Below are positions 639-21,024 of a DNA stretch of 21,024 nt, piece by piece; the first letter of the stretch is position 1; each line of letters begins with the position of its first letter. The notes under the pieces were generated by a model. The model was not told the DNA's origin and did no database searches. It was given only the letters and a program-made list of their open reading frames with translations. The position numbers were made by a program, and so were the translations under genes. Location of the stretch: assembly GCA_016218485.1 (NCBI GenBank), contig JACRDY010000068.1:1-21024 (forward strand), read 5' to 3'. This DNA is from Candidatus Falkowbacteria bacterium. Its GTDB lineage: Bacteria; Patescibacteriota; Patescibacteriia; JACRDY01.

Positions 639-773
639 GCGTATTTACTTCGTAAATGCGCAAATTACGAATTACAAATTACGAATTATTCAGTATCCAG
701 AAAAATCAAGATACCGAAATTCGTCATTCATAATTACTCATTCGTAATTTGCACGTAGCGAAGCGAAGTGCAT
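639..773 (+). repeat. ~135-nt AT-rich insertion in a terminal 16S helix, just upstream of the GGAAGGTGGGGATGACGTCAAGTC block (E. coli ~1160-1175 hairpin). Built from ATTACGAATT-type words and internally palindromic.
   Basis: The flanking stem CCCCCGCCTAAGCG / CATTTAGGCGGGGG encloses tatttacttcgtaaatgcgcaaattacgaattacaaattacgaatt...attcgtcattcataattactcattcgtaatttgc. The equivalent E. coli loop is ~10 nt. The word AATTACGAATTAC recurs in the intergenic spacer at 9316-9350. Confidence 0.5.
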
Positions 774-2548: not shown

Positions 2549-3115
2549 ATGACCGCAGAAACCATGGACTGGCCGCTGCCGATCGCCGAAAAACAGTTTG
2601 ATAACGCCGCGGCAGTGGTAGCTGGGCTGTATACCATTCCCCGCACCGGCTGGGTGCAGCGCGGGGTGGACAACCCGGAAAGTGTCGGGCAGCATACGGA
2701 TGCGCTCGTTACTTTGGCGCGAGAATTAGGGCCGCAGATAGCCGGGCTGGATCAGAAAAAATTAGAACGAATGCTGCAGATTCACGATTGGCCGGAGGCG
2801 CTGGTTGGTGATCAGGTAGCTTTCAGCTCCACAGAAAAACAACAAAAATTTTTAGTAGAAAGGGCCGCGATGCAAAAAATTTGCGCTGCATTAGGAGACG
2901 AGGGAGCGGAAATTATGAACCTGTGGCTGGAGTACACTGATGGCCAGACGGGTGAAGCAAGTATTGCTAAGCAGCTGGATAAACTGCAGGCACTCATGCA
3001 GGCGACCACGTACGAGCGCGCCGGGCAGACGGTGCGAGCACGTGATTTCGTTCACTACCGAGCAATGATTACGCATCCCTTGCTGCGTCAGATGCTGGCT
3101 GAACTGGAAAAATAG
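2549..3115 (+). CDS. HD-domain phosphohydrolase (YfbR/HDDC2-like 5'-deoxynucleotidase family)
   Basis: A 188-aa ORF with an H...HD...D arrangement: RTGWVQRGV-NPESVGQHTDALVTLA ... QIHDWPEALVGD. Confidence 0.6.
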   Translation: MTAETMDWPLPIAEKQFDNAAAVVAGLYTIPRTGWVQRGVDNPESVGQHTDALVTLARELGPQIAGLDQKKLERMLQIHDWPEALVGDQVAFSSTEKQQKFLVERAAMQKICAALGDEGAEIMNLWLEYTDGQTGEASIAKQLDKLQALMQATTYERAGQTVRARDFVHYRAMITHPLLRQMLAELEK

Positions 3116-3337: not shown

Positions 3338-4612
<1,275 letters not shown>

Positions 4613-4684: not shown

Positions 4685-4854
4685 CTGTTTGGTGGCATCC
4701 CTGCTCGACTCACCCCGCACAATGCGGAGTGGGTGGGTTTTTATTGAATTACTTAAATTCTAAATTCAAAATCCTAAATTCCAAATACTTAAATCATAAA
4801 TTCTAAACACGCAATACCGAGTTTAAGATTTTGGATTTAGGTAGTATGATTCAT

Positions 4855-4911
4855 CCAGCACCTTCCAGAATATCCCGCAGCAAGCTGACGGGATATTCTG
4901 GAAGGTGCTGG
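4855..4911. repeat. Perfect long hairpin / palindromic element, copy 1 of the CCAGCACCTT family
   Basis: ccagcaccttccagaatatcccg-cagcaagctgac-gggatattctggaaggtgctgg, a 23-bp perfect stem. It is itself flanked by an inverted pair of AT-rich word-repeat arms (4745-4800 / 4912-4965). Confidence 0.7.
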
Positions 4912-4990
4912 ATTTATTTAGGATTTTGAATTTTAGGTTTATAATTTAATTCTTAGTTATGGGTAAGTCTCATTCTATAAATTTTCAGAG

Positions 4991-5083: not shown

Positions 5084-5101
5084 CCTGCCCGCCAGAGCCT
5101 C

Positions 5102-5173
5102 AGCGGGTAGGGGGAATTGAACCCCCCTCTCCAGTTTGGAAAACTGGAATAATAACCGCTATACGATACCCGC
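5102..5173 (-). tRNA. tRNA-Gly (anticodon TCC)
   Basis: Reverse complement: GCGGGTA-TC-GTAT-AGCGGTTA-TTAT-T-CCAGT-TTTCCAA-ACTGG-AGAGG-GGGGG-TTCAATT-CCCCC-TACCCGC-T. Cloverleaf with U73 discriminator, closely similar to bacterial tRNA-Gly(UCC). No encoded CCA. Confidence 0.85.
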
Positions 5174-5191
5174 TCAGGCTGAGGCAGGCGG

Positions 5192-5213
5192 GGAAAACTG
5201 GAATAATAATCGC
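5192..5213 (-). pseudogene. Partial copy of the tRNA-Gly D-loop, D-stem 3' strand and anticodon stem/loop up to the anticodon, lying just 5' of the intact tRNA-Gly
   Basis: Minus-strand reading: GCGATTATTATT-CCAGT-TTTCC, against the intact gene GCGGTTATTATT-CCAGT-TTTCC. Together with the 4991-5083 fragment it forms an outer tRNA-Gly-like copy split in the anticodon loop by [spacer + intact tRNA-Gly + spacer]. Confidence 0.45.
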
Positions 5214-5228
5214 TTACCATTATATACA

Positions 5229-5304
5229 TGGTCGGGCCGGCGAGGCTCGAACTCGCGACCTCCTGGTCCCAAACCAGGCGCGCTACCAACTGCGCTACGG
5301 CCCG
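5229..5304 (-). tRNA. tRNA-Pro (anticodon TGG), CCA encoded
   Basis: Reverse complement: CGGGCCG-TA-GCGC-AGTTGGTA-GCGC-G-CCTGG-TTTGGGA-CCAGG-AGGTC-GCGAG-TTCGAGC-CTCGC-CGGCCCG-A-CCA. C1:G72 is typical of tRNA-Pro. Confidence 0.85.
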
Positions 5305-5325
5305 ACCATGTTTTTAATGATGAAA

Positions 5326-5448
5326 GCCGGGACGCGCTTCACCCGCCCAAATTTAGCTCTCATCATTAATGGTATCCGCGATTACCCACCATCGTGTAAT
5401 CAAAACGGACAACGTTTTTGTACCGAGCTAAATTTGGGCGGGTAAACC
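5326..5448 (-). repeat. Copy 1 of a ~125-nt terminally palindromic structured element (candidate ncRNA or MITE), immediately 5' of tRNA-Pro
   Basis: Terminal inverted repeats CACCCGCCCAAATTTAGCTC ... GAGCTAAATTTGGGCGGGTAAACC (~20 bp) enclose internal hairpins (CAAAACG-gacaa-CGTTTTG; GATTAC...GTAATC). Two further copies at 5756-5879 and 6149-6273 show the same organisation. Confidence 0.7.
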
Positions 5449-5465
5449 AACTGCGCTACGGCCCG
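5447..5465 (-). pseudogene. Partial copy of the tRNA-Pro 5' end (acceptor 5' strand through the D-loop), abutting element copy 1
   Basis: Minus-strand reading: CGGGCCGTAGCGCAGTTGG, identical to the first 19 nt of tRNA-Pro, followed directly by the element's TTTACCCGCC end. Confidence 0.5.
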
Positions 5466-5543
5466 TTAATAACAATTAACAGTTAACAATTAACCAGTAA
5501 CAAACAACCAAATATGCTAGTCAATTGTTAAGCGTTAATTTGT

Positions 5544-5640
5544 TAACTGTTAATTGGTGCCGAGGGGCAGAATTGCCCGCTCGTCTTCGCGAGCGGATCC
5601 GCTCAGGCCGAATGGCCATGAGCGGAAACTGCCGACGCTC
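5544..5640 (-). pseudogene. Partial second copy of the tRNA-Phe 3' portion with a ~50-nt structured insertion in the T-loop, and an encoded CCA
   Basis: Minus-strand reading: ...GGCGTC-GGCAG-TT[TCCGCTCATGGCCATTCGGCCTGAGCGGATCCGCTCGCGAAGACGAGCGG]GCAATT-CTGCC-CCTCGGC-A-CCA. The insert shares CCGCTCAT-GCC-TTCGG-C-T-AGCGGATC with the Gly-copy insert. Confidence 0.5.
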
Positions 5641-5662
5641 CCGCCAACTATTCCAGGCAATC

Positions 5663-5734
5663 TGCCGGGGGGCAGAATTGAACTGCCGACGCCATGCTCT
5701 TCAGGCATGCGCTCTACCACTGAGCTACCCCGGC
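5663..5734 (-). tRNA. tRNA-Phe (anticodon GAA)
   Basis: Reverse complement: GCCGGGG-TA-GCTC-AGTGGTA-GAGC-G-CATGC-CTGAAGA-GCATG-GCGTC-GGCAG-TTCAATT-CTGCC-CCCCGGC-A. No encoded CCA. It is flanked by the inverted leader/trailer GCAATCT...AGATTGC. Confidence 0.85.
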
Positions 5735-5755
5735 AGATTGCAAATTATAGTTGTA

Positions 5756-5879
5756 GGCGGGACGCTCTTCACCCGCCCAAATTTAGCTCTAGTAATTAAT
5801 GGTATCTGTGACTCTCTCACGCGCGTGTAATCCAAGCAGATAACGCTTTTGTGCCGAGCTAAATTTAGGCGGGTAAACC
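5756..5879 (-). repeat. Copy 2 of the ~125-nt element, immediately 5' of tRNA-Phe
   Basis: Same terminal inverted repeats (CACCCGCCCAAATTTAGCTC...GAGCTAAATTTAGGCGGGTAAACC). The interior is divergent, but the internal hairpin is kept by different base pairs (AAGC/GCTT versus AAAACG/CGTTTT in copy 1). Confidence 0.7.
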
Positions 5880-5918
5880 AGCCCCGAAGGGGCCCCTTTG
5901 GGGCTGAGCTACCTCGGC
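5880..5918 (-). pseudogene. GC-rich double hairpin plus a 15-nt fragment matching the 5' end of a tRNA-Phe variant
   Basis: Minus-strand reading: GCCGAGGTAGCTCAG-CCCCAAAGGGGCCCCTTCGGGGCTGG. GCCGAGG is exactly complementary to the CCTCGGC acceptor 3' strand of the partial Phe 3' copy at 5544-5640, and not to that of the intact tRNA-Phe (GCCGGGG/CCCCGGC). Confidence 0.45.
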
Positions 5919-5966
5919 TTACCCTGATATCTGAACGGAATATAGTATTAGCAAATAGACTGCATA

Positions 5967-6048
5967 GGGCGTACTTGGATTCCCCGCCTGCCAGCGCCTG
6001 CGGCGCAGCCGTTGGCGGGCAGGGAACCAAGGACCTCGTCATTATCAG
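5967..6048 (-). pseudogene. Partial second copy of the tRNA-Ile 3' portion with a 42-nt GC-rich hairpin insertion in the T-loop
   Basis: Minus-strand reading: CTGATAA-TGACG-AGGTC-CTTGG-TTC[CCTGCCCGCCAACGGCTGCGCCGCAGGCGCTGGCAGGCGGGG]AATCC-AAG-TACGCCC. The insert sits at the same T-loop position (after TTC) as in the Gly and Phe copies. Confidence 0.5.
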
Positions 6049-6066
6049 CTCCGCCCCGCACCAAAA

Positions 6067-6140
6067 TGCGCGTACTTGGATTTGAACCAAGGACCTCGTC
6101 ATTATCAGTGACGCGCTCTAACCAACTGAGCTATACGCGC
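6067..6140 (-). tRNA. tRNA-Ile (anticodon GAT)
   Basis: Reverse complement: GCGCGTA-TA-GCTC-AGTTGGTTA-GAGC-G-CGTCA-CTGATAA-TGACG-AGGTC-CTTGG-TTCAAAT-CCAAG-TACGCGC-A. No encoded CCA. Confidence 0.85.
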
Positions 6141-6148
6141 ATATTGCT

Positions 6149-6273
6149 GCGGGGTGAACGCTCTTCACCCGCCCAAATTTAGCCTTAGTAATTAAGGGTA
6201 ACCGCGATTACTCACCATCGTGTAATCTAAGCGGACAACCTTTTTGTACCGAGCTAAATTTAGGCGGGTAAAC
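6149..6273 (-). repeat. Copy 3 of the ~125-nt element, immediately 5' of tRNA-Ile
   Basis: The terminal inverted repeats and interior are highly similar to copy 1. It is followed at 6274-6313 by the same GC double hairpin and a 5' tRNA fragment GGACGTATAGCTCAG, which pairs with the TACGCCC strand of the partial Ile 3' copy. Confidence 0.7.
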
Positions 6274-6420
6274 CAGCCCCGAAGGGGCCCCTTTGGGGCT
6301 GAGCTATACGTCCGTCATCTAGAGTTTACTGCTAGGGTAGATAAAAATAACTACTCGGCAGTCTAATACAAAACGGTAAAAAAAGCAAGGTACGAGCAGG
6401 CTGATTTAGTCTTAATTTGA

Positions 6421-6463: not shown

Positions 6464-7564
6464 ATGACTCAAAAGAATAAGAAACCCACAGTCATCGTGG
6501 CCATGTCCGGCGGCGTGGATTCGTCTGTCGCGGCCGCTTTACTACAGCGGCAGGGCTATGACGTGCGCGGCGTGCATATCAAGATGTGGTCGGATCCGGA
6601 TATCCCCTGTTTGTTTACTTTTGACCGGATTGACGCCATGAAAGTAGCGATCCAGCTCGGCATTCCTTTCACCACTTGGGATCTGACGCGCGAATACCGC
6701 AGCGCGGTCGTGGACTACATGATCCGCGAGTTTAAGGCCGGTCGGACGCCCAACCCGGACGTGATGTGTAATAGCGAGATCAAGTTCGGGGTGTTTTTGG
6801 ATAAAGTTTTAAAAACGGGCGCGGAGTATTTGGCGACGGGGCATTATGTGAAAAAAGCGCAAAGCGCAAAGCGCAAAGCACAGAGCCAGTCCACGATACA
6901 AAAATTGTATATCGCGGCGGATGGGAATAAGGATCAGAGCTATTTTCTCTGGCGGCTGAATCAGCAGCAGCTGCGGCATAGCCTGTTTCCCCTGGGTGGT
7001 CTGACTAAGCCGCAGGTGCGAGTCCTCGCCAAACAGTTTAAGCTGCCTACCGCTGACAAGCCGGACTCGCAGGGTATCTGCTTCATCGGCGAGATTAACC
7101 TCAAGGATTTCCTGGAACACTACATCCCCCGCCGTCCGGGCACAATCGTGACCACGGACGGCCGCGTACTCGGCCATCATGAGGGTCTCCCCTTCTATAC
7201 CATTGGTCAGCGTGAGGGGCTGGGTCTGGGCGGTGGCATCCCCTACTATGTCGTTGCCAAAAATTTTAAAACCAATCAGCTGATTGTTGGCAGCCGGGGC
7301 GCGGCTGAACTGTTTCTGCCGAGTTTGCGGTTCACCGCCGCCAATTGGCTACTTGGCAGCGAGCCGAAACTGCCTCTGATCTGCCTGGCGCGTATCCGCT
7401 ACCGTCAGCCGCTGGAGCGTTGTCGGGTCAAACGCATCAGCGGTCGCGGCATTCGGGCGATCTATCAAGCGAAATTTACCGAGCCGCAGCGGGCCATTAC
7501 TCCCGGTCAGTCCATTGTGTTGTACAGGAGCGAGGAGATGATCGGGGGCGGGATTATTATTTAG
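6464..7564 (+). CDS. mnmA: tRNA-specific 2-thiouridylase (tRNA (5-methylaminomethyl-2-thiouridylate)-methyltransferase)
   Basis: A 366-aa ORF. PP-loop VAMSGGVDSSV near the N-terminus. Collinear with MnmA throughout (DQSYFL, GICFIGE, ITPGQS..GGGII C-terminus). It contains an ~8-codon in-frame insertion encoded by GCGCAAAGCGCAAAGCGCAAAGCACAGAGC at ~6856-6890. Confidence 0.85.
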   Translation: MTQKNKKPTVIVAMSGGVDSSVAAALLQRQGYDVRGVHIKMWSDPDIPCLFTFDRIDAMKVAIQLGIPFTTWDLTREYRSAVVDYMIREFKAGRTPNPDVMCNSEIKFGVFLDKVLKTGAEYLATGHYVKKAQSAKRKAQSQSTIQKLYIAADGNKDQSYFLWRLNQQQLRHSLFPLGGLTKPQVRVLAKQFKLPTADKPDSQGICFIGEINLKDFLEHYIPRRPGTIVTTDGRVLGHHEGLPFYTIGQREGLGLGGGIPYYVVAKNFKTNQLIVGSRGAAELFLPSLRFTAANWLLGSEPKLPLICLARIRYRQPLERCRVKRISGRGIRAIYQAKFTEPQRAITPGQSIVLYRSEEMIGGGIII

Positions 7565-7700
7565 TCCTTAGTCCATAGTCCCTAGTCCTTAGTCCATAGT
7601 CCTTATTCCATAGTCCTTAGCGTATAGTTTTAGCGTGAAAGCCTCCACTAAGTACTAGGGACTAAGGACTATGGACTATGTATAGGACTATGTACTATTT
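7564..7700. repeat. Palindromic spacer built from TAGTCC/TAGGAC-type 6-9-nt words
   Basis: gtccttagtccatagtccctagtccttagtccatagtcc...actagggactaaggactatggactatgtataggactatg. The two arms are reverse complements of each other. Confidence 0.55.
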
Positions 7701-7817
7701 CCTCTAATTTTGCTATACTAATACTATAGCTATCAGGACATTGACGCTTTTCCAGTCGTGTGCTAACCTATTGGCAAACAAAAGCCCTATGATACGGGTT
7801 TTTTATTTTAAGTCAGT

Positions 7818-7920
7818 CCAGCACCTTTCATCATTTTTATCTAAAATTTGCCATTATATTAGCTAAAATAAGATTAATTATGGTTGATTTATTTTAGATA
7901 AAAATGATGAAAGGTGCTGG
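7818..7920. repeat. Long perfect hairpin, copy 2 of the CCAGCACCTT family, with an AT-rich interior; it ends exactly at the start codon of the next gene
   Basis: ccagcacctttcatcatttttatctaaaat...attttagataaaaatgatgaaaggtgctgg, an ~30-bp perfect stem. Confidence 0.65.
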
Positions 7921-8523
7921 ATGGCTAAAAATATGCAAAAATCACGGATATTGCAAAAACTACGTAAATATTGGAGAAAATTAGGCGCTTTTTTGGTGCA
8001 CATGCATGTGCGTCGGGTTGAATTGGCTGTTTTTGCTGTAATTTTATTTGAATTTTCTTTTCCTCAAGTATCATTAGCTCAAGAATTGCAGGCTCCGGCC
8101 AGCTATCAGACCGAGAGCGTGATGTATGAAACAGTGATTCGGGATGCCGCTCCGGTTATCAGCGACGCGGCTGTATTGGCTGATTTTAATAATAGTCTGC
8201 CAATGGCGGCTGATCGTCAGCCGACCCGTACCATCTGGGTGACGGTAACGGCCTACTCCAGCACTCCGGATCAGACTGACGACAGCCCGTGTATTACGGC
8301 TAACGGGTTTGATGTCTGTGAACACGGGCAGGAGGACGTGATCGCGGCCAATTTTTTGCCCTTTGGTACCACGGTCAAAATGCCGGAGTATTTCGGCGAC
8401 ACAGTCTTTACTGTGCAGGATCGGATGAACGCGCGCTACTACAGCCGCGTTGATGTCTGGATGCAGAGCCGGGAGGCGGCTAAACAATTCGGCGTGCGGA
8501 CGCTTAAGGTTGAGGTTTATTAG
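7921..8523 (+). CDS. Secreted 3D-domain protein (MltA-like fold, cell-wall binding/remodelling; related to YocH/YuiC C-terminal domains)
   Basis: An N-terminal hydrophobic signal/anchor (LAVFAVILFEFSFPQVSLA). The C-terminal region has VTVTAYSSTPDQTDDSPCITANG ... VIAANFLPFGT ... FTVQDRMN...VDVWM, with three spaced Asp residues. The true start may be the internal ATG at 7933. Confidence 0.6.
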   Translation: MAKNMQKSRILQKLRKYWRKLGAFLVHMHVRRVELAVFAVILFEFSFPQVSLAQELQAPASYQTESVMYETVIRDAAPVISDAAVLADFNNSLPMAADRQPTRTIWVTVTAYSSTPDQTDDSPCITANGFDVCEHGQEDVIAANFLPFGTTVKMPEYFGDTVFTVQDRMNARYYSRVDVWMQSREAAKQFGVRTLKVEVY

Positions 8524-8745: not shown

Positions 8746-9246
8746 ATGCAGCTATTTGTTAAAAAATTCACCAAAAACGGCCTGAAAATAGGTTTTTTTG
8801 TGGTGGCGCTGTGTTTGATGTTGGCGCTGGCATTGCCGGTGCTGGCCGTTACTGGACAGGGTGGTGACACGGGGCAGGGGGATACGAGTGGGCAGGGTAA
8901 TGACACCGGATCGGGTGGTGATACGGGACAAAATGAAGGGGGTAAGGCCAGTATTATATCCCTGGAAGATCCATTGAATGTAAAGACGGATGCAACAGGG
9001 CCATTGTCCAACATAGCTATTGTGCAGGAAATAATTCTCCGTTTGGCTAAATTCCTGATCGCGCCCATCGGCGCTATTGCTTTCCTCTGTTTGGTGATTG
9101 GCGGGTTTTATATGATTTTTTCCGGGGGTAATGAGGAGCGGGTTAAACAGGGCAAAGATATTATTGTCTGGACCGTGGTGGGGATTATCGTGATTTTTAG
9201 CGCCTACGCGGTGATTAATTTTGTGCTGACGGCGGTGAGAGGATAG
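8746..9246 (+). CDS. Secreted small membrane protein with TrbC/VirB2-like conjugative-pilin topology (signal peptide, Gly/Asp/Thr-rich low-complexity segment, two C-terminal TM helices)
   Basis: A 166-aa ORF. Signal peptide FFVVALCLMLALALPVLAVTG, then repeats QGGDTGQGDTSGQGNDTGSGGDTGQNEGG, then two hydrophobic helices separated by GGNEERVKQGKD. TATAAT at 8733-8742. The family assignment rests on topology only. Confidence 0.35.
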   Translation: MQLFVKKFTKNGLKIGFFVVALCLMLALALPVLAVTGQGGDTGQGDTSGQGNDTGSGGDTGQNEGGKASIISLEDPLNVKTDATGPLSNIAIVQEIILRLAKFLIAPIGAIAFLCLVIGGFYMIFSGGNEERVKQGKDIIVWTVVGIIVIFSAYAVINFVLTAVRG

Positions 9247-9478
9247 CACAAAGCTCAGAGCACAAAGCGCAGAGTTCAGAGCGCAAAGCACGTTTCAAAA
9301 GAGCGTCTTTTTTTAATTAGGAATTACTAATTACGAATTACGAATGAGATTACCAAAGAGCGGCTTTTGGCAGGCTAGGAACATGTAACATGTAGCATAT
9401 AGCATGTAACTCCATACAAGCTACACGCTACATGCTACAAGATTTTCTCTCATTTTAAACACTTTTATATACTTTTGA

Positions 9479-9684: not shown

Positions 9685-10698
9685 ATGATGCGATTGATTG
9701 AGTCTCTTGATGCGAAAGTCCAAAAGTGGTTCGGCATTCAGCTGATCAAGCTGTGGGACGCGAAAAGCCAAGGCAATCCCCCAGTCATTGTTCGGCTGGA
9801 TGAAAAGCACGAGATCGTTTTCCGATCCGTCTTCGGCAGTGACGACCACACCTTCAGTGGTTACCGGATAGAAGAACCCACCTATTGCTGGTGGGTCCCG
9901 GTCTTCCGTGACGAATACGTCGCCACGATTTTTACCGGGGAGTACTCCGCACCGTTCAATACGCAAGGATTTGAGGCCAACTCCGGCGTGGAAAATATAA
10001 ATGACCTGGAAAAGGAATTCAAGGGCATGATGGGCGCTGCCGCGTGGGAGAAGGCTCGTAAGGAACTGGAAGAGGTGATACAGCGTCGTCTGAAAGGCGG
10101 CGCGCCGAAAGTGACGATATACGTCTCCGGTACGTTGCAGCTCGATGTTGAAGGCATCATCAACGCCAGCGCGAAATACGCCACTCGCTTGTTCAAGAGC
10201 GGCAACGCGGATCAGATCATCAACGGCATGATGGAGCTCGCGCTCGCCCATGTCTTCGGCAGCATGATGCTGGAATCAGCCCTGATCCTCGCGGGTCATC
10301 GGCGGGAAAAGACGATCAAGCAGCTGATGAACTTGATGAATTTCGGCTGCCTGGAAGTGGACGAAGGTGGCGAGCCGATCGAGGCGACGCGGGTCACGGG
10401 TATCAAAGGTCTGCGGTACTACGGTCTCCGTCTGGTGCAGTTCGGTATCAAGCGGATTGTGCCGCCGGAGGAGATTGAGGAAGCGATCCGTCAGGAAGAA
10501 AGCGCCGAACGAGAGCGCGTGGCCGATAAAGCCAAGGCTGATGTCGCGGCAATGATTCACGATCTTCCAGCGGCGTTGGCGTTTACGGTTATGCACCTGA
10601 CCGATGCCCAAGTCAAAGGCCCGGGTCTCGAAATTTCAGTCAGTAAGAATAAGAAGGGAAAGTCCGGCGGTGCAGCAGCGAGTGACTCCACCGATTAA
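9685..10698 (+). CDS. Hypothetical soluble protein, 337 aa, no recognisable domain
   Basis: Long ORF with a GGAGGTG RBS 6 nt upstream and coding-like composition. No motif recognised by eye. Confidence 0.6.
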   Translation: MMRLIESLDAKVQKWFGIQLIKLWDAKSQGNPPVIVRLDEKHEIVFRSVFGSDDHTFSGYRIEEPTYCWWVPVFRDEYVATIFTGEYSAPFNTQGFEANSGVENINDLEKEFKGMMGAAAWEKARKELEEVIQRRLKGGAPKVTIYVSGTLQLDVEGIINASAKYATRLFKSGNADQIINGMMELALAHVFGSMMLESALILAGHRREKTIKQLMNLMNFGCLEVDEGGEPIEATRVTGIKGLRYYGLRLVQFGIKRIVPPEEIEEAIRQEESAERERVADKAKADVAAMIHDLPAALAFTVMHLTDAQVKGPGLEISVSKNKKGKSGGAAASDSTD

Positions 10699-10754: not shown

Positions 10755-11753
10755 ATGGAAACAGGAAAAGTCCCATATAGTGAGCCAGGTGAGGTAGATG
10801 CGAAGAAGAAGAAAGATCAATCAGGAGGGAGCATCTACGGCTGGACTATCGCCGGTTTTGCCCTGCTGGCCCTGGTGGTTGTGCTGGTGATCGTGGTAGG
10901 TATCGTGGCGGGGATCGTCGGGGCAATTTCCTGGCTAGCTTTAGGGCTCCTCAGCGTACATATCTCCGCGATTGTACTGCTGGTGGGCTGGCTGTACCGC
11001 CAAAAGGCATTTAGCGCCGCATGGGCAGTGATCTGGGCCGCCATTCTGTTTTTCGGCATCCCAATATGGCTCTTGAAGTATAGTGCCTGGTCGCCTGAGG
11101 CGGCCAAGATGATCAGCGTGTACATTGAGACCGAGGCGGACAAGCAGCGTGAGCTGCCAAACCCGCCGAGTGAGACCTATGAGGAACCAACTTTTCAGGA
11201 CTTCGTCCGTGAGGCCGGAGATCTAGGAGATGGTGAGACCACCACGTTTGAGGAGCCGGCATTTCCGATTGACACGTCAATCCATTGGAAGACCCAGCGA
11301 GGCGTGTGGTGCGTGTACTTTGATCCGAAGACGGATCCGTACCCGTGCCGCGGCAATACCGGCCTGCCCGGTCATGGCGACTTTCGTCTGAAGAACGACG
11401 GGCCGCACTTCACCATCAAGGCCAAGGGGCCGGTGGAGGGGCTGATATTCAGCTACACGGCCAAGACCGGGACTCACCCGGTGCGCAAAGACGACGCGAC
11501 CATCGCGGCCGAGCGCAGGGCCTATGAAGAGAAGGCGGCCGCGATCAAGGACAAGGCCGCGGTTCAAAAAAAGCCGCCGGACGAGTGGTACCAGAATCCA
11601 ATAACATGGATCGTTGTGGCGGTGCTTGCGCTGGTGATCGGCCTGATCATCAGCCGGGTTCGCGCTGGCGGTCGGGTCAAGGCCGCTCAACGTGCGGCAG
11701 ACCAGCAGGCCGTATTGGCACAGTTGGCAAAGGGCGAGGTCACGGTGGAGTGA
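10755..11753 (+). CDS. Hypothetical integral membrane protein (about 4 N-terminal TM helices, a central soluble domain, a C-terminal TM helix), probably co-transcribed with the 9685 gene
   Basis: A 332-aa ORF with an AGGAG RBS. A stable hairpin cgggtcgcgggcttaaacccccgcgacccg with no T-run sits in the 56-nt gap after the upstream gene. Confidence 0.6.
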   Translation: METGKVPYSEPGEVDAKKKKDQSGGSIYGWTIAGFALLALVVVLVIVVGIVAGIVGAISWLALGLLSVHISAIVLLVGWLYRQKAFSAAWAVIWAAILFFGIPIWLLKYSAWSPEAAKMISVYIETEADKQRELPNPPSETYEEPTFQDFVREAGDLGDGETTTFEEPAFPIDTSIHWKTQRGVWCVYFDPKTDPYPCRGNTGLPGHGDFRLKNDGPHFTIKAKGPVEGLIFSYTAKTGTHPVRKDDATIAAERRAYEEKAAAIKDKAAVQKKPPDEWYQNPITWIVVAVLALVIGLIISRVRAGGRVKAAQRAADQQAVLAQLAKGEVTVE

Positions 11754-12132: not shown

Positions 12133-12597
12133 ATGGGCAACACTAATCAACAATTTGAATTATTAGCCATTAAACAAGATTTGGCGGAATTTCGTCAAGA
12201 AAATAACGAACTGTTTTTGGCTATTAAGCAAGATCTAGATCGGATGGCCACCAAGGACGATCTCCAAGGCGTGAAGGACGATCTCCAAGGCGTGAAGGAC
12301 GATCTCCAAGGCGTGAAGGACGATCTCCAAGGCGTGAAGAAGGACTTACATAGGTTCGCCACCAAAGACGACCTATTAGCATTCGCCACCAAAGACGACA
12401 TGGAACATTTTCGGGATGAATTAAAAGAAGAAATTCATCAGACATTTGATGTGCTAATTACCGGGCAGGATAAAATAGTGAAGATACTGATGGATCAGAA
12501 AGCGGAAAACGCGGCCAATCAATCAGCGCACGGACGTTTCCAGACCACGCTGGATACCCACGAACGGAGAATAGGTGTTTTGGAAAATCCTGTTTAG
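12133..12597 (+). CDS. Coiled-coil repeat protein with KDDLQGV heptad repeats
   Basis: A 154-aa ORF with ATKDDLQGV-(KDDLQGV)x3-KKDLHRFATKDDLLAFATKDDMEHF. The heptad periodicity suggests a coiled coil. Confidence 0.6.
   Translation: MGNTNQQFELLAIKQDLAEFRQENNELFLAIKQDLDRMATKDDLQGVKDDLQGVKDDLQGVKDDLQGVKKDLHRFATKDDLLAFATKDDMEHFRDELKEEIHQTFDVLITGQDKIVKILMDQKAENAANQSAHGRFQTTLDTHERRIGVLENPV
12253..12336 (+). repeat. Perfect 4 x 21-nt tandem repeat (aaggacgatctccaaggcgtg) inside the 12133 CDS
   Basis: Four identical consecutive units encoding KDDLQGV. Degenerate units follow (aagaaggacttacat..., accaaagacgacctatta...). Confidence 0.9.
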
Positions 12598-12654: not shown

Positions 12655-12656
12655 AT

Positions 12657-12713
12657 CCAGCACCTTTCAGAATACCCCGTCAGCTTGCCGTGGGGTATGC
12701 TGAAAGGTGCTGG
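12657..12713. repeat. Perfect long hairpin, copy 3 of the CCAGCACCTT family, immediately upstream of polA
   Basis: ccagcacctttcagaataccccg-tcagcttgcc-gtggggtatgctgaaaggtgctgg. It is homologous to copy 1 (4855-4911) with compensatory substitutions on both arms. Confidence 0.7.
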
Positions 12714-12750
12714 ATTTTATTACCCCAAAAATGGTAAAATAGGCCTATCT

Positions 12751-15549
12751 ATGGCTAAGAAAAAGTTAGTAATTATAGATGGCAACGCCCTGATTCACCG
12801 GGCGTTCCATGCATTGCCGCCGACGCTGCGGACCAAGGACGGCACGGTCGTCAACGCCGTATACGGTTTTGCTTTGATTCTTCTCAAAATTTATAAAGAG
12901 CTGAAGCCTGATTATCTCGCCTTGACGTTGGACCGGGCCGCGCCGACATTTCGCCATATTGAGTACACCGAGTACAAGGCGCATCGGATCAAGCAGCCCG
13001 ATGAGCTGTACGCGCAAATTCCACTGGTTAGAGACTTGGCGGGCGCGTTTAATATCCCGACGTACGAGCTGGACGGCTACGAGGCGGATGACCTGATTGG
13101 CACGATTACCGCCAAGACCGACGGCGGTGTCAGGAATATCATTGTTACCGGCGACATGGACACGCTCCAGCTGGTGGATAACGACACTGAAGTCTTCACC
13201 ATGAAGAAAGGGGTCAATGACACGGTCACCTATGATAGTGCCGCCGTGGTCGAGCGCTATGGCCTGCGGCCAGACCAGATGATTGATTACAAAGCGCTGC
13301 GCGGGGACGCTTCAGACAATATCCCGGGCGTGCGGGGAATCGGCGAGAAAACCGCGGTGGAGCTGCTGCAACAGTTTGGGACTTTGGAAAATGTATATAA
13401 AGAAATAAAGAAATTGAGAAATAAAGAAATTACCAGTGTCCGGCCAAGAGTGGCAGAGTTGCTGTTGGAGCATGAGCAGGACGCGCAGATGTCACAGCAT
13501 CTGGCGACGATTGTCCGGGACGCGCCAATTAAGTTTATGATAGAGGACGCGGTAGTGGCCGGGTATGACCAGCAGGCGGTTTTTGACTTATTCCAAAAAC
13601 TGGAATTCAAGTCGCTCTTGAGCAAGATCCCGGGCATGGAAGGCCGGCAGCGTCCCGAGAGTAAAGAGGGGCAGCGGGGGTTGTTTGATAATTCAAAATC
13701 ACAAATTCAAAATAATAAATCCGAAATAAATTCTAAATTCCAAATCCGAAACGGCTACCACTTGCTGGACGATGAGAAGAGTTTTAAAAAGTTTATCGTG
13801 GAACTCAAGAAGCAAAAGTTGATTGTTATTGACACCGAGACCACGGGGTTGGATACGATTACGGATACATTATTGGGGATTGGGTTTTGTTGGAAAGAGG
13901 GGGAAGGATATTATTTAGAAATAAAGAAATTAAGAAATAAAGAAATTGAAAAAGCCATCAGCAGGATTTTATCTGATGAGAAAGTAAAAAAAGTCGGGCA
14001 CAATTTGAAGTTTGATATTGAGGTATTGACGAACGCCGGGTTTACCGTCCGGGGTGTGTATTTTGACACCATGCTCGCCTCCTACCTCCTGGATCCGGGC
14101 TCTCGGGCGCATGACCTGGATACGTTGGCCTTCACCGAGCTTGGCTACCAGATGACGCCGATTGAGCAGCTGATTGGCTTGGGCAAGAGTCAAATTACTT
14201 TAGCCGACGTGGCGGTGGAAGTCGTGGCCGACTACTGCTGCGAGGACGTGGATTATACATTTCGGTTGTATCAAAAGTTAAGTAACGCCATTGAGCAGAG
14301 AAACAGTTTTGGCTTGATGGAAACCATAGAAATGCCGCTCGTTGCCGTGTTAGCCAAAATGGAACTCTTGGGCGTGAAGATTGACATGAAGTTCCTGGGC
14401 CAGCTGGATCGTGAGATTGAGACCACGCGGCAGAAACTAGACAAGAAAATTTTTGCCATGGCAGGCAAAGAATTCAATCTTGATTCACCACTGCAGCTCA
14501 AAGAAATCCTGTTTGAGACGCTGGAAATCCCGACCGAGGGGCTGAAGCGCGGTAAAACCGGTTTCTCCACGGCCGCGGCTGAATTGGACAAAATGCGCGG
14601 GCTGCACCCGATTATTGACTTGATTTCCGAGCACCGGGAGCTGGCCAAACTGCAGTCCACTTACACCCAGGCACTGCCAAAATTGGTTAATAAAAAAACC
14701 GGCCGGGTGCACACCAGCTTTAATCAGACGGTGGCGGCTACTGGTCGGCTGTCTTCGTCAGACCCAAATCTCCAGAACATTCCCATTCGGACGTCATTAG
14801 GCCGCGAGGTGCGCAAGGCCTTCATCGCCGAAAAAGGCTGCCAAATACTGAAAGCCGACTACTCGCAGATTGAGCTGCGGATCGTGGCTAGTCTGGCGCA
14901 AGACAAAGAGATGTTGGCGATTTTCAAGCGCGGGGAAGATATTCATGCCGCTACAGCGGCAGCGATTCACGGCGTGCCCCTGGACAGTGTGACTAAGGAA
15001 ATGCGCTACAGCGCTAAAGAGGTCAACTTCGGCGTGCTCTACGGCATGGGCGCGTACGGCCTGTCGTGGCGCACCGGCATCAGCATGGCTGAGGCCAAAA
15101 ATTTTATTGATAAATATTTTAAGACCTTCTCTGGCGTGAAAAAGTTCGTGGATAGTACGATCAAGTTCGCCCGGCGGGACGGCTACGTGGAGACGCTGTT
15201 TGGCCGCCGCCGCTATCTGCCGGAGATTAATTCAGGCATGGCGCAAGTCAAAAACGCGGCCGAGCGCATGGCCATCAACGCGCCAATTCAGGGCACGGCC
15301 GCGGACTTGATTAAGCTGGCCATGATCGCGCTGGACACAAAGTTAGCGGCTGAATTTACAACAGAAGAAGTAAAGATGATCCTGCAGGTGCATGATGAAT
15401 TGGTGTTTGAGGTAAAGAGCGGTTTAGTAAAAACCGTCGCGCCACTGGTGAAGGATGTGATGGAGAACGTGTACCAGCTGCGCGTGCCGATTGTGGTGGA
15501 CGTGGAGGCGGGGGAGAGCTGGGGGGAGACGGGGGAGGTTAGTTTGTAA
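12751..15549 (+). CDS. polA: DNA polymerase I (5'-3' exonuclease, 3'-5' exonuclease and polymerase domains)
   Basis: Start chosen at MAKKKLVIIDGNALIHRAFHALPP (ATG 12751). The ORF-track start at 12685 lies inside the upstream hairpin. 5'-nuclease motifs are present (GDASDNIPGV.GIGEKTA), as are the 3'-5' exo region (VIDTETTGLD ... YLLDP) and the Pol A family motifs (RRxxKxxNFGxxYG; VHDELVFE). Confidence 0.9.
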   Translation: MAKKKLVIIDGNALIHRAFHALPPTLRTKDGTVVNAVYGFALILLKIYKELKPDYLALTLDRAAPTFRHIEYTEYKAHRIKQPDELYAQIPLVRDLAGAFNIPTYELDGYEADDLIGTITAKTDGGVRNIIVTGDMDTLQLVDNDTEVFTMKKGVNDTVTYDSAAVVERYGLRPDQMIDYKALRGDASDNIPGVRGIGEKTAVELLQQFGTLENVYKEIKKLRNKEITSVRPRVAELLLEHEQDAQMSQHLATIVRDAPIKFMIEDAVVAGYDQQAVFDLFQKLEFKSLLSKIPGMEGRQRPESKEGQRGLFDNSKSQIQNNKSEINSKFQIRNGYHLLDDEKSFKKFIVELKKQKLIVIDTETTGLDTITDTLLGIGFCWKEGEGYYLEIKKLRNKEIEKAISRILSDEKVKKVGHNLKFDIEVLTNAGFTVRGVYFDTMLASYLLDPGSRAHDLDTLAFTELGYQMTPIEQLIGLGKSQITLADVAVEVVADYCCEDVDYTFRLYQKLSNAIEQRNSFGLMETIEMPLVAVLAKMELLGVKIDMKFLGQLDREIETTRQKLDKKIFAMAGKEFNLDSPLQLKEILFETLEIPTEGLKRGKTGFSTAAAELDKMRGLHPIIDLISEHRELAKLQSTYTQALPKLVNKKTGRVHTSFNQTVAATGRLSSSDPNLQNIPIRTSLGREVRKAFIAEKGCQILKADYSQIELRIVASLAQDKEMLAIFKRGEDIHAATAAAIHGVPLDSVTKEMRYSAKEVNFGVLYGMGAYGLSWRTGISMAEAKNFIDKYFKTFSGVKKFVDSTIKFARRDGYVETLFGRRRYLPEINSGMAQVKNAAERMAINAPIQGTAADLIKLAMIALDTKLAAEFTTEEVKMILQVHDELVFEVKSGLVKTVAPLVKDVMENVYQLRVPIVVDVEAGESWGETGEVSL

Positions 15550-15655
15550 GTTCATAAGTTCATTAGTTGGTAAGTTTATTAGTTTATTAGTTGGAAAGTT
15601 TAAAAGTTAACCCCGTCGGATCGCTCTGGCGGGGTCTTGCTGTTCGTGCGGGGGT

Positions 15656-18030: not shown

Positions 18031-18096
18031 TGCCTTCTCCTTGAGCGTGAAAGGGTTATGTTCTTTGTACCATACTAGGGGAAAAGGTCAAGATTA

Positions 18097-18167
18097 GACA
18101 CAGATTACACAGATAAACACAGATGGCACAGATCCGTGTGATCTGTGATTATCTGTGTAATCTGTGT
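18097..18167. repeat. Near-perfect ~70-bp palindrome of CACAGAT-type words, abutting the stop codon of the 18168 gene
   Basis: agacacagattacacagataaacacagatggcacagatc|cgtgtgatctgtgattatctgtgtaatctgtgtct. A second copy, 68/71 identical, is at 20861-20931. Confidence 0.8.
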
Positions 18168-20111: not shown

Positions 20112-20861
20112 ATGTCCACCAAAAATATTCTAGAAGACTTGGGTCTAACCAAAAGCAAGGCTGATGTGTACTTGGCGGCGTTAGCCGTTGGCAGCGGCTC
20201 GGCCCAGGAGATCGCCAATCGGGCGGGTTTACCGCGGACTACTACTCATGAAATTCTGCAGACGCTCGTCGGCATGAGTCTGATTGGTTTCGTGACTAAA
20301 GGCCGGACGCGGATCTACAGCGCCGAGCCGCCGGAGAAGCTCAAAATTTTACTCAAAGAAAAAGAGGCCAGGCTCGAAAAGGCTTTGCCAGAATTGTCGG
20401 CTCTCTTCAACACCAGCGGCATTCGGCCGCGGGTGCGGTTTTACGAAGGTGAGGATGGTATTAAAACAGTGTTTGAAGACACGCTGACCGTCAGCAACAA
20501 GCTGTTGCGCAGTATTCTTTCCATGAAAGACCTGTATGAAATGCCGGGCAAGGATTACGTCAACGCCTACACGCGCCGGCGAATTGCGGCTGGAATAAAA
20601 CTGCGCGTGGTGCGTTCAGAGGGTAAAGAAGTGGAGAAAGTTTGGCCGGCGAGCACTCGAGACAGCCGCGATCTGCATTACGCGCCGGATGATATGTTTT
20701 TCCCGATGACGGTGTATATTTACGACAACAAGCTCGGGCTCATCAGCAGCAAAAAAGAAAACTTCGGCATGATTATTGAGTCGCCGGATCTGTATCAGAC
20801 CATGAAGAATATGTTTGAGGTGATGTGGCAGGTGACGCGGGTGATGAAACCGGTGGATTAG
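20112..20861 (+). CDS. TrmB-family transcriptional regulator (N-terminal winged HTH plus C-terminal effector domain)
   Basis: A 249-aa ORF with the N-terminus LGLTKSKADVYLAALAVGSGSAQEIANRAGLPRTTTHEILQTLVGMSLI, which matches the TrmB HTH pattern (LGLTxxEAxVYLxLLxxGxxTAxEIAxxSGVPRTKVYxVLxxL). Confidence 0.65.
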   Translation: MSTKNILEDLGLTKSKADVYLAALAVGSGSAQEIANRAGLPRTTTHEILQTLVGMSLIGFVTKGRTRIYSAEPPEKLKILLKEKEARLEKALPELSALFNTSGIRPRVRFYEGEDGIKTVFEDTLTVSNKLLRSILSMKDLYEMPGKDYVNAYTRRRIAAGIKLRVVRSEGKEVEKVWPASTRDSRDLHYAPDDMFFPMTVYIYDNKLGLISSKKENFGMIIESPDLYQTMKNMFEVMWQVTRVMKPVD

Positions 20862-20931
20862 ACACAGATTACACAGATAATCACAGATCCGTGTGATCTG
20901 TGATTATCTGTGTAATCTGTATCTAATAGAT
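20861..20931. repeat. Second copy of the CACAGAT-word palindrome
   Basis: agacacagattacacagataatcacagatc|cgtgtgatctgtgattatctgtgtaatctgtatct. It overlaps the TrmB stop codon on one side and abuts the stop of the partial paralog on the other. Confidence 0.8.
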
Positions 20932-21024
20932 TTCCTTCTGGTAACACTCCTCACAGTACACCCGTTCCGGCCGCTCCGGCGCGTACGTGGTCTCAAATTC
21001 ATTGGTGCAGCCTGCGTTCTTGCA
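20923..21024 (-). CDS. 3' end of a second paralog of the cysteine-rich multi-zinc-ribbon protein; it continues beyond the window
   Basis: Positions 20923-21024 are ~96% identical at the nucleotide level to 18168-18262 (same ...CEECYQKEIY-stop), with a few substitutions. Confidence 0.7.
   Translation of the reverse strand, partial: CKNAGCTNEFETTYAPERPERVYCEECYQKEIY

Follow-up and report, generated by a model that had tools for sequence, protein, structure and literature searches.

Repeat arrays in genes and spacers of the window

The DNA analyzed here, referred to as the window, is a stretch of 21,024 nucleotides from the genome of a Candidatus Falkowbacteria bacterium, an ultra-small member of the CPR/Patescibacteria (contig JACRDY010000068.1). 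It includes a 16S rRNA gene, mnmA, a pilin-like gene and polA, and short tandem arrays lie within or beside all of these (Table 1). The common denominator of the tracts is a period of 7 nt, sometimes 8 nt, which an earlier note on this DNA, made from its sequence, had missed. Local arrays in the window occur at lags 7 and 8 (and 14, which is twice 7) only, and a 50-kb E. coli control has none at lag 7 or 8. Arrays cover 13.2% of the intergenic nucleotides and 1.7% of the genic nucleotides; for the host genome, the excess and the intergenic bias were measured on the 21-kb window alone.

Table 1. Periodic arrays of the window and the evidence for each.
Feature	Positions	Strand	Evidence
AATTACG heptamer array in the 16S rRNA gene, one arm of a long hairpin (partner arm 726–752)	659–692	+	Lag test; fold z −4.6
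Spacer array, TAAATTC x7.6 (complementary arm 4917–4947)	4752–4807	+	TRF
mnmA in-frame heptanucleotide array	6848–6889	+	TRF; lag-7 test; orthologue loops; AF2 model
Long hairpin with heptamer arrays as both arms, TTAGTCC x8.6 (7553–7620) and ACTAAGG (7646–7698)	7553–7698	+	TRF; fold
Single-arm spacer array, GCACAAA/GCTCAGA/GCGCAGA/GCGCAAA	9245–9291	+	TRF; comparison
Spacer array AATTACG (9313–9350) and hairpin pair AACATGT/TACAAGC (9375–9410, 9415–9444)	9313–9444	+	TRF; lag test
PolA site 1, 8-nt array (AGAAATAA/AGAAATTG) in the 5'-nuclease SAM-fold domain	13393–13432	+	TRF; lag test
Degenerate 7-nt array in the PolA interdomain linker, types AATTCAA/AAATTCC/AAATCCG	13690–13751	+	TRF; lag-7 test; relatives' alignment
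PolA site 3, second copy of the site 1 8-nt array, in the 3'-5' exonuclease domain	13912–13954	+	Match to site 1
8-nt array (TAAGTTYA) over the last codons and stop codon of polA	15537–15608	+	TRF; lag test

The hairpin of the 16S rRNA array constitutes an insertion of 145 nt in that gene (approximately 635–779). The long hairpin that begins at the mnmA stop codon has a folding energy of −59.9 kcal/mol (z −8.0). The mnmA tract is matched most closely by the single-arm array, which begins at the pilin-like stop codon, and the polA linker tract by the TAAATTC spacer array (22/24; 17/18). The contig also has a dispersed palindrome family (TCCAGCACCTTYCA, three hairpins), which is confined to non-coding sequence. 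An Rfam search of the tracts and spacers found no known RNA family, and its matches were only to rRNA, tRNAs and one intron-domain.

An in-frame array in mnmA

The mnmA open reading frame spans 6464–7564 and carries its array in frame, between the GHYV and NKDQSYF motifs. The perfect core, (AAAGCGC)x3.7 at 6854–6879, has a period of 7 with 100% matches by TRF, and is bordered by degenerate units, GTGAAAA upstream and GCACAGA and GCCAGTC downstream; this anatomy, a perfect core with decayed units on either side, counts in favor of a microsatellite. Across the whole zone the lag-7 match is 0.71, compared with 0.33 ± 0.08 in shuffles of the same tract (p<0.0002). The encoded peptide is KKAQSAKRKAQSQS, and its 7-residue period is a by-product, because three units of 7 nt make seven codons. 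We saw no hairpin in the tract (fold z −0.76) and no complementary arm nearby.

The tract had been credited with adding about eight residues, and there are indeed additional in-frame residues, although the figure is either seven, relative to S. pneumoniae MnmA (2hma), or 12, relative to the CPR minimum loop of 15 residues, which is present in 21 of the 78 loci with a delimitable loop. In an AF2 model the insert extends the β-hairpin E130–135/E144–149, and the 10-residue block 131–140 has a mean pLDDT of 72 compared with 88.8 for the model overall; the array lengthens a β-hairpin loop of MnmA. Its words are those of the spacer array at 9245–9291, as the earlier note had proposed for approximately the same spacer positions (9247–9292). 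The sequence GCRCARAGCRCARAGC, with no more than two mismatches, matches only the mnmA tract and this spacer (nine occurrences observed, 0.21 expected), and the two are identical at 24 of 28 positions, with a longest exact common word of 12 nt.

Arrays in polA

The polA linker array encodes amino acids 314–334, within the linker (amino acids 275–335) that separates PF01367 from PF01612. That a repeat tract encodes the linker is confirmed, in the form of a degenerate 7-nt array: the lag-7 match is 0.62, compared with 0.38 ± 0.06 when shuffled (p=0.0002), and TRF reports a period of 14 with 2.9 copies and 84% matches at 13690–13729. An exact 18-mer reported to be common to the linker and the intergenic repeat at about 4776–4793 was not recovered; the best matches are 17/18, at 4755–4772 and at 4769–4786, and the longest exact common word is 14 nt. 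At its 3' end the linker array is made of ancestral coding sequence, KFQIRNGY aligning with the conserved DFKIRKGY of relatives. The linker tract forms no hairpin (fold z +1.14), and a complementary arm was not found nearby.

The array at PolA site 1 encodes EIKKLRNKEI, and related 8-nt arrays are present at this site in two relatives (L084 and L085). Sites 1 and 3 of the window are alike at 33 of 36 nt, 18 of them in an exact run, and have a common 16-nt super-unit; they are therefore not independent in origin and one copied the other, so that some copying between arrays does occur. Both of these polA arrays, and the 16S rRNA array, had been overlooked previously.

Orthologous sites in relatives

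The nearest relatives that we found stand at 64% for MnmA and 68% for PolA. Alignment of orthologues, the check proposed in the earlier note, places the extra residues exactly at the tracts and reveals that they differ between lineages. The MnmA loop varies from 15 to 70 residues over the 78 delimitable loci, and loops of at least 23 residues mostly have their best lag at 7. We did not observe loop lengths quantized as 15 + 7n residues, as would be expected if only three-unit steps occurred.

The arrays begin after GHYV-K-K in the window (AAAGCGC), in L081 (AAAGTCC), L082 (AAAATCC) and L083 (AAAACAC), and also in L019, L032, L009 and L008. Different lineages thus start from the same Lys codons and in the same register, and each has its own homogenized unit. 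Unit identity is 0.93 within an array and 0.67 between lineages (eight lineages, same register), the same substitution is found in all units of the array within each lineage, and at least three perfect units are kept in at least eight lineages. Pairs of MnmA proteins that are 85–95% identical over the next 150 residues can carry unrelated loops. Two scans of public metagenomes gave no matches to length variants of the window mnmA array. All MnmA genes examined are intact open reading frames through the array and no frameshifted allele was seen among them; a frameshift considered for L036 and L038 was ruled out, as both are intact with GHH in place of GHY.

In three syntenic relatives (L084–L086) arrays are located at the corresponding variable PolA sites, with differing units, and no site lacks an array in more than one of these relatives. 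Some of these units are one substitution apart (GCTCGCA and AGCTCCC), and the units at site 3, that of the window included (AGAAATAA, GCCATCG and GGTTCGC), are unrelated to each other; the site 3 arrays of the relatives are 7-nt arrays unrelated to the 8-nt array of the window. Two-armed heptamer hairpins that resemble the intergenic structures occur in frame in L085 (polA site 3) and L001 (MnmA loop), and L085 also has AGAAATAA hairpins in its spacers. A further genome, P0235, encodes the peptide SKKLEVRS at both polA sites 1 and 3. Insertions of 50 residues in the MnmA loop or at polA site 3 of other CPR genomes (...SFPRKRESRL...LDSRFRGNDN and ...SRESGNP...DSRLRGNDK; P0081 and P0235) look, from their sequences, like palindromic elements translated in frame, and P0081 differs from P0061 by such a palindromic-element-like insertion at 95% identity.

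Generality of the 7-nt period

Across 81 CPR loci (1.24 Mb) we identified 104 lag-7 arrays, compared with between 5 and 27 at other lags, lag 14 excepted. These arrays have 79 distinct consensus units, which rules out a single unit family throughout CPR. Units are alike (at least 6/7) in 13.5% of non-adjacent pairs within a locus and in 7.2% of pairs between loci, a 1.9-fold difference. Thirty of 98 lag-7 arrays are located in mnmA, at two hot spots, when only seven are expected from its 7.1% share of the DNA; the density in mnmA is 0.39 arrays per kb compared with about 0.28 per kb in intergenic DNA, and is roughly 13-fold the density in other long open reading frames. The sense strand is A-rich in 34 of 36 mnmA arrays, compared with 59 of 96 elsewhere.

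Origin of the arrays

We consider it probable that the mnmA and polA linker tracts are coding members of a genome- and CPR-wide class of long-unit microsatellites of 7 nt (sometimes 8 nt), which arise in place, evolve in concert and are filtered by selection, and that they are not a transposed element. The arrays have at least three head-to-tail copies of one unit, an excess of the period that is mostly intergenic, and concerted evolution in eight lineages, as is characteristic of heptanucleotide long simple sequence repeats (SSRs). We infer that slippage is the generating step and selection the filter. Arrays would arise and turn over in place when strands slip or templates switch in the course of replication or repair, with native A-rich codons as the probable seeds (GTG AAA AAA after GHYV in mnmA, and TTC AAA ATC CGN in the polA linker), and the same copying process would keep each array internally homogeneous. 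Intergenic DNA would be filled by such arrays, often in complementary pairs that form the arms of long hairpins. Within genes, an array would survive only if its added length is divisible by 3 nt, all three frames that it cycles through are free of stop codons, its A-rich strand is on the sense side, giving a peptide rich in Lys, Ser, Asn, Ile and Gln, and it lies in a permissive place: the tip of the MnmA β-hairpin, the PolA interdomain linker and two loops, and a 16S rRNA expansion helix. Likeness to particular spacers may then reflect a common process and a biased word repertoire, together with occasional copying from array to array.

Several observations count against an origin in place. 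The unrelated units at polA site 3 are not easily explained by mutation and homogenization, and the same side of the balance includes the copy at polA sites 1 and 3, the in-frame hairpins of relatives, the modest excess of unit sharing within genomes and the fast turnover of the loops. Moreover, a 7-nt unit in an essential gene is a mutational liability that should be selected against, and its persistence is not fully explained.

An alternative explanation is that spacer arrays already present in the genome were the source of the coding tracts, copied either by a mobile repeat like the Rickettsia palindromic elements (RPEs) or MITEs, or by ectopic templated repair (gene conversion), such that the dominant word families of each genome overwrite permissive gene sites. 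The earlier note had favored a version of this, RPE-like in-frame colonization by a small repeat family. It was right that tracts and spacers are alike in kind, both being short arrays of 7-nt periodic words, and that within the window the coding words resemble spacer arrays more than expected by chance. For every in-gene array the best partner lies inside the window: 9245–9291 for mnmA (20/24, equalled in 4 of 80 foreign loci), 4754 for the polA linker (22/24, equalled in none of 80) and 9315 for the 16S array (22/24, equalled in 1 of 80). The super-unit common to polA sites 1 and 3, at a site where the arrays of relatives are unrelated, the repeated SKKLEVRS at the same two sites in P0235, the AGAAATAA hairpins in L085 spacers, the 1.9-fold greater unit sharing within loci, and the 50-residue palindromic-element-like insertions at the MnmA loop and polA site 3 of other CPR genomes all point the same way. 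However, unrelated CPR genomes match the coding tracts nearly as well (up to 21–22/24, compared with 20–22/24 for the window spacers), and the window has about eight times as many arrays as the average CPR locus, so that a good match inside it is likelier by chance.

The RPE-like small repeat family itself is not supported. Permissive sites of conserved genes do carry in-frame insertions, in the MnmA β-hairpin loop and in the PolA linker, but we found no discrete element of 100–150 bp with a many-copy consensus (best matches elsewhere are 20–22/24); the coding tracts are of variable length, 26–63 nt, with no defined ends, and the lag-7 arrays of the CPR loci have 79 units among 104 arrays. Array edges decay gradually, with neither clean presence/absence boundaries nor target duplication, and the mnmA and polA linker tracts have no hairpin potential. 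Relatives have orthologous arrays in the same register, and the one real dispersed palindrome family of the contig stays out of coding sequence. We regard such copying as an unlikely source of the tracts.

A further proposal, to which we assign a rather low probability, is that a CPR-specific and highly active process writes and homogenizes 7–8-nt arrays and their inverted copies as a major engine of genome evolution, with the MnmA loop as a maintained hypermutable or contingency site and not an accident that is tolerated. The cause of this process could be a property of the replication or repair polymerases, or a dedicated enzyme.

Non-triplet repeats within open reading frames drive phase variation in pathogens, and the mnm5s2U34 modification of tRNA-Lys affects reading and frameshifting on A-rich codons. 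The mnmA array, which has a 7-nt non-triplet unit within the open reading frame, might be a functional hypermutable site, acting either as a contingency locus (the gene switched off and on through frameshifts of ±1 unit) or as an AAA/CAA/AAG sensor read by MnmA-modified tRNAs. The array density in mnmA is above that of intergenic DNA, Lys and Gln codons abound in the arrays, and the retention of perfect units in so many lineages implies recent or continuous homogenization. We nevertheless think this function very unlikely, as the MnmA reading frames examined are all intact, copy numbers are low (3–5), and PolA linkers and 16S rRNA, for which switching would be meaningless, have arrays of this kind too; a Lys-codon seed together with selection for hydrophilic loops also accounts for the A-richness, and a stretch of MnmA-dependent codons would give positive rather than homeostatic feedback. 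That nothing happens at the DNA level, and protein selection simply maintains low-complexity hydrophilic loops and linkers whose likeness to spacers is a compositional accident, is scarcely credible: the sites are poorly conserved loops or linkers in all homologues and A/T-rich word classes recur over CPR genomes, but 26 nt of perfect (100%) 7-nt periodicity cannot stem from amino-acid selection, and this idea is already contradicted by the TRF period, by lag-7 signals above own-composition shuffles (p≤0.0002) and by the same substitutions in all units, lineage by lineage.

Relation to known repeats

The arrays most resemble heptanucleotide long SSRs. Mrazek, Guo and Shah (2007, PNAS), as represented in PMC4692102 and PMC4679880, found that in many bacteria heptamers are over-represented more strongly than other long SSRs, and proposed polymerase slippage; as in the window, these are tandem 7-nt units in excess over neighboring periods, mostly intergenic and with many units per genome. 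As far as these accounts go, repeats in coding sequence mainly have units that are multiples of 3, whereas the arrays described here include perfect 7-nt ones in frame in essential genes, recur at one loop throughout a phylum-level radiation and, in the window, form an rRNA expansion helix. No report of heptamer arrays in CPR/Patescibacteria was found in the literature searched.

Other heptamers include the STRR sequences of heterocystous cyanobacteria (Mazel et al. 1990) and the GGGGAYT/GGGAATC repeats of Nostoc and Xanthomonas (both PMC4692102), and the TAACTGA repeats of Beggiatoaceae (PMC4679880). On the evidence of these sources, they too are tandem arrays in spacers, some in inverted stem-loop pairs, that vary between close relatives, although they belong to different phyla, differ in sequence, and have a few dominant units per genome and an almost wholly intergenic location, whereas CPR have dozens of units. 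The host, a Candidatus Falkowbacteria, and the units (AAAGCGC, AATTACG, TTAGTCC and others) place the window arrays outside the cyanobacterial STRRs.

RPEs, in the description available in PMC10969869, are discrete palindromic elements, roughly 150 bp long, that fall into about ten families and encode a peptide conserved within each; like the window tracts they add in-frame residues at permissive surface sites of housekeeping proteins, and insert in RNA genes too, whereas the window tracts are short and periodic and not palindromic, have units specific to their locus, and correspond to orthologous arrays in relatives. Borg tandem repeats create disordered protein regions, and those within open reading frames give amino-acid repeats of 4–17 residues (PMC9879509). 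They resemble the window arrays in being perfect, fast-evolving and independently arising, in encoding hydrophilic low-complexity peptides, and in that slippage is discussed for them (PMC9879509). Borg units are longer and, because the in-frame repeats yield tandem amino-acid repeats, are read in a single frame, whereas the 7-nt unit cycles through three frames and is viable only as net three-unit changes.

Implications

Because two of three slippage events destroy the frame, essential genes would be expected to lose non-triplet repeats; against this expectation, mnmA and polA retain perfect 7-nt arrays, and these recur at the same loops over a huge bacterial radiation, with each lineage having its own homogenized word. 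In CPR proteins, tracts like these will lead to errors in alignments, in comparisons of gene length and in the placing of domain boundaries, and they are likely to be variable-number markers for strain typing. They also provide a natural test system for why 7 nt is the favored slippage unit in bacteria. The odd, variable insertions in conserved proteins, the rRNA insertions and the word-like hairpin spacers of CPR genomes would all find a single explanation in microsatellites that arise in place. If the CPR-specific array-writing process were real, it would build long spacer hairpins, rRNA expansion segments and hypervariable loops in essential proteins.

Heptamer arrays in mnmA and polA

The mnmA tract is present as the earlier note described; above all, it is periodic at 7 nt. 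Its core at 6854-6879 consists of (AAAGCGC)x3.7 with 100% matches (Tandem Repeats Finder), and decayed units flank it, GTGAAAA upstream and GCACAGA and GCCAGTC downstream. At 13690-13751, polA likewise holds an array of 7-nt period, here degenerate; it corresponds to residues 314-334 within the linker (residues 275-335) separating the 5'-nuclease from the 3'-5' exonuclease domain (Pfam). Matching at a 7-nt offset is 0.71 in the mnmA tract against 0.33 in shuffles of its own composition, and 0.62 against 0.38 in the polA linker tract (p<=0.0002 for each). The reported likeness of the mnmA tract to the spacer at 9245-9291 is real (24/28 identical, 12 nt exact), and a degenerate two-unit pattern matches these two places only, with 9 matches and 0.21 expected. 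The exact 18-mer said to be common to the polA linker and a spacer is wrong in detail; the agreement is 17/18, at 4755-4772 and 4769-4786, and the longest exact common word is 14 nt.

Features of the window, an entire contig (21,024 nt) from a metagenome-assembled genome of Candidatus Falkowbacteria (CPR/Patescibacteria)
Feature	Position	Strand
16S rRNA, 3' part	1-1021	
LAGLIDADG endonuclease	1400-2005	
HD-domain protein	2549-3115	
purD	3338-4612	
tRNA genes (4)	5101-6141	minus
mnmA (MBI5622117.1)	6464-7564	
Hypothetical gene	7921-8523	
T4SS-pilin-like gene	8746-9246	
SPFH-domain protein	9685-10698	
Membrane protein	10755-11753	
tRNA-Cys	between membrane protein and repeat protein genes	
Repeat protein	12133-12597	
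polA (MBI5622123.1)	12751-15549	
GC-rich stretch	~15.6-18.1 kb	
Cys-rich protein	18168-19796	minus
trmB-like gene	20112-20861	

Periodic arrays across the window

Among lags 1-15, local periodic arrays occur in the window at lags 7, 8 and 14 only; ten are at lag 7 and five at lag 8, and there are 9-nt arrays too. In 50 kb of E. coli DNA, run as a control, the same detector found no lag-7 or lag-8 arrays. In the window, 13.2% of intergenic nucleotides lie in arrays versus 1.7% of genic ones, and the array words differ at almost every place. Many intergenic arrays are paired as complementary arms of one long hairpin, and the hairpin at 7553-7698, directly 3' of the mnmA stop codon, has a folding energy of -59.9 kcal/mol (z -8.0); the arrays at 9245-9291 and 15537-15608 are single-armed. 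Besides the mnmA and polA linker tracts, in which folding revealed no RNA or DNA hairpin potential, there are three in-gene arrays, two in polA and one in the 16S rRNA gene.

The 16S rRNA array (659-692) lies in a 145-nt insertion at 635-779 relative to the bacterial SSU model (model positions ~1158-1161), where it forms a long hairpin of AATTACG heptamers with a partner arm at 726-752 (z -4.6). The same word recurs in the spacer array at 9313-9350, so the repeat process behind such arrays may also build the rRNA expansion segments of this lineage. Past the point where the annotated 16S rRNA ends (3'), a match to the group-II-intron D1-D4 RNA family at 1370-1483 (48 bits) overlaps the start of the LAGLIDADG endonuclease ORF; in L082, the locus of another CPR genome, a LAGLIDADG gene of equal length is located inside the region that a fragmented match to 16S rRNA covers.

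Several arrays also start at gene ends, either within the final codons or right on the stop codon, in mnmA (7553-7564), the pilin-like gene (9244-9246) and polA (15537-15549), with comparable arrays in the relatives L084 (12798-12843) and L085 (12811-12848). Gain or loss of units at such gene ends could alter the C-terminus or stop codon; past the stop of the pilin-like gene the frame is open for 24 further codons. The repeat protein (154 aa, no Pfam match) contains KDDLQGV four times, encoded by a perfect 21-nt tandem repeat at 12253-12339 (4.1 copies, 100% identity), which together with the perfect mnmA heptamer array suggests that tandem duplication has been active very recently in this genome.

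The MnmA loop in CPR relatives

The nearest MnmA homologue is only 64% identical. Among 32 aligned homologues the segment from GHYV to NKDQSYF varies hugely in length, bearing out the lineage-specific indels expected by the earlier note, and many inserts resemble translated periodic DNA. We compared 80 MnmA loci from species-representative genomes with the window (1.24 Mb in all), and these 81 loci contain 104 lag-7 arrays versus 5-27 at any other lag, 14 excepted. In 78 of these loci the limits of the loop were clear; it has the minimum length of 15 aa in 21 of these and is 27 aa long in the window, and 7 is the best lag for most loops of at least 23 aa. Thirty of 98 lag-7 arrays lie at two hot spots in mnmA, a gene that makes up 7.1% of the DNA, and array density is higher in mnmA than in intergenic DNA, figures that rest on crude ORF masks and on loci selected via MnmA, which limits the ranking of mnmA as a hot spot against other proteins.

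In many lineages the arrays start directly after the GHYV-Lys-Lys codons, in identical register with differing units. The loop unit is AAAGCGC in the window, AAAATCC in L082, which is syntenic with it, and AAAGTCC (L081), AAAACAC (L083), AAAGYGC (L019), AAAGTTC (L032), AAAAATC (L009) and AAAATTC (L008) elsewhere. Unit identity is 0.93 inside an array versus 0.67 between lineages. This pattern is the hallmark of an orthologous tandem array in concerted evolution, and recent insertion from a spacer would not yield it. Loops turn over fast, and MnmA pairs 85-95% identical over the next 150 residues can have unrelated ones.

In an AlphaFold2 model (mean pLDDT 88.8) the insert lies in a beta-hairpin (strands 130-135 and 144-149), with a mean pLDDT of 72 for the 10-residue block 131-140; the loop is 7 residues longer than in the solved S. 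pneumoniae MnmA (2hma). The A-rich strand is the sense strand in 34/36 mnmA arrays versus 59/96 arrays elsewhere, and Lys, Ser, Asn, Ile and Gln are abundant in the encoded peptides. Since a heptamer array is read in the three frames by turns, survival inside a gene requires a stop-free word in each frame and a net length divisible by three.

Variable sites in PolA

The PolA proteins of the syntenic relatives L084, L085 and L086 are 67-68% identical to that of the window, and the lineage differences anticipated at the polA tract are found, as arrays with other units at the variable sites; every such site is periodic in at least two of the three relatives. Site 1 (13393-13432 in the window) has related 8-nt units (AGAAATAA, AAGAAAAC, AACAAAAC), and the linker units of L085 (GCTCGCA) and L086 (AGCTCCY) differ by one substitution. 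At site 3, L084 carries GCCATCG, L086 GCGAGCY and L085 an in-frame two-armed hairpin (GGTTCGC...GCGAACA). In the window, site 3 (13912-13954) is a copy of the genome's own site-1 array, the one clear copying event; the two are near-identical 8-nt arrays (33/36 nt, 18 exact), both encoding EIKKLRNKEI. At the 3' end of the window's linker array, KFQIRNGY lines up with codons conserved in the relatives as DFKIRKGY, so this array grew out of native sequence.

Other repeats and structured elements

A separate genome-specific palindromic family with arm ends ATCCAGCACCTTYCA is present at 4853-4913, 7817-7921 and 12655-12715; the arms match six times in the window, against an expectation of 0.01, and the 86 other loci contain no match. 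The first copy is nested within a heptamer hairpin (4752-4947), the second ends at the start codon of the hypothetical gene, and the third follows a terminator-like hairpin and ends 36 nt before polA starts. Its members may be REP/MITE-like elements or operators.

Directly upstream of tRNA-Pro, tRNA-Phe and tRNA-Ile is a conserved structured element of ~130-170 nt (5305-5480, 5736-5915 and 6142-6310, minus strand; mean column identity 84%), with a long stem ACCCGCCYAAATTTAGCTC...GAGCTAAATTTGGGCGGGT and no Rfam match. Partial tRNA duplications adjoin it, 5441-5460 repeating part of tRNA-Pro and 6024-6071 duplicating 6084-6131 of tRNA-Ile, and inverted repeats (I15, I22, I25) flank the tRNAs.

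The GC-rich stretch (GC 0.57-0.60, AT skew as low as -0.27) has only two ORFs, both on the minus strand and without a Pfam match, and a 552-aa gene occupies its position in the syntenic relatives L084 and L085; the stretch may have been replaced or be of foreign origin. A ~170-nt block that opens with a palindrome of 9-nt units (ACACAGATA) flanks the Cys-rich and trmB-like genes at 18092-18269 and 20856-21024 (97% identical). The second copy extends to the last base of the contig, so the assembly may have broken there.

Origin of the coding tracts

There are 79 consensus units among the 104 arrays. Over 24 nt, the in-gene arrays match the rest of the window at 20-23/24 at best, and unrelated CPR loci at 21-22/24. 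Units are shared (at least 6/7) by 13.5% of non-adjacent pairs in the same locus versus 7.2% of pairs from different loci, so that the excess of word sharing within a genome over that between genomes is no more than about twofold; throughout the CPR radiation the repertoire favours A/T-rich, AAATT-like words. The mnmA and polA tracts represent, inside coding sequence, a class of 7-8-nt microsatellite-like arrays that pervades CPR genomes. Colonisation of coding sequence like that by Rickettsia palindromic elements (RPE), as the earlier note proposed, fails on what defines RPEs, which are discrete, palindromic and present in conserved copies. The most economical mechanism would be local slipped-strand or template-switch copying, probably seeded by native A-rich codons and followed by repeated homogenisation and, inside genes, strong selective filtering.

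In many bacteria no other class of long simple repeat is as over-represented as heptamers (PMC4692102 and PMC4679880), and a polymerase footprint has been proposed to explain their excess. Coding repeats in that long-SSR literature are chiefly multiples of three; what is new here is therefore perfect heptamer arrays within essential genes, recurring at orthologous loops. The literature searched yielded no description of them for CPR.

A copy-and-paste component is unlikely, though two facts speak for it: arrays do at times copy one another, and insertions resembling translated palindromic elements occur in the same loops of other CPR genomes. That the mnmA array is a functional hypermutable site is a remote possibility and has no direct support.

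The insertions in question, each of ~50 aa, are in the MnmA loop of the CPR protein P0081 (...SFPRKRESRL...LDSRFRGNDN) and at PolA site 3 of P0235 (...SRESGNP...DSRLRGNDK). P0081 differs by its insertion from P0061, with 95% identity over the next 150 aa. Judged by their sequences, both look like in-frame translated palindromic DNA elements at the same permissive sites, and if they are true palindromic elements they would represent a genuine RPE-like phenomenon in CPR.
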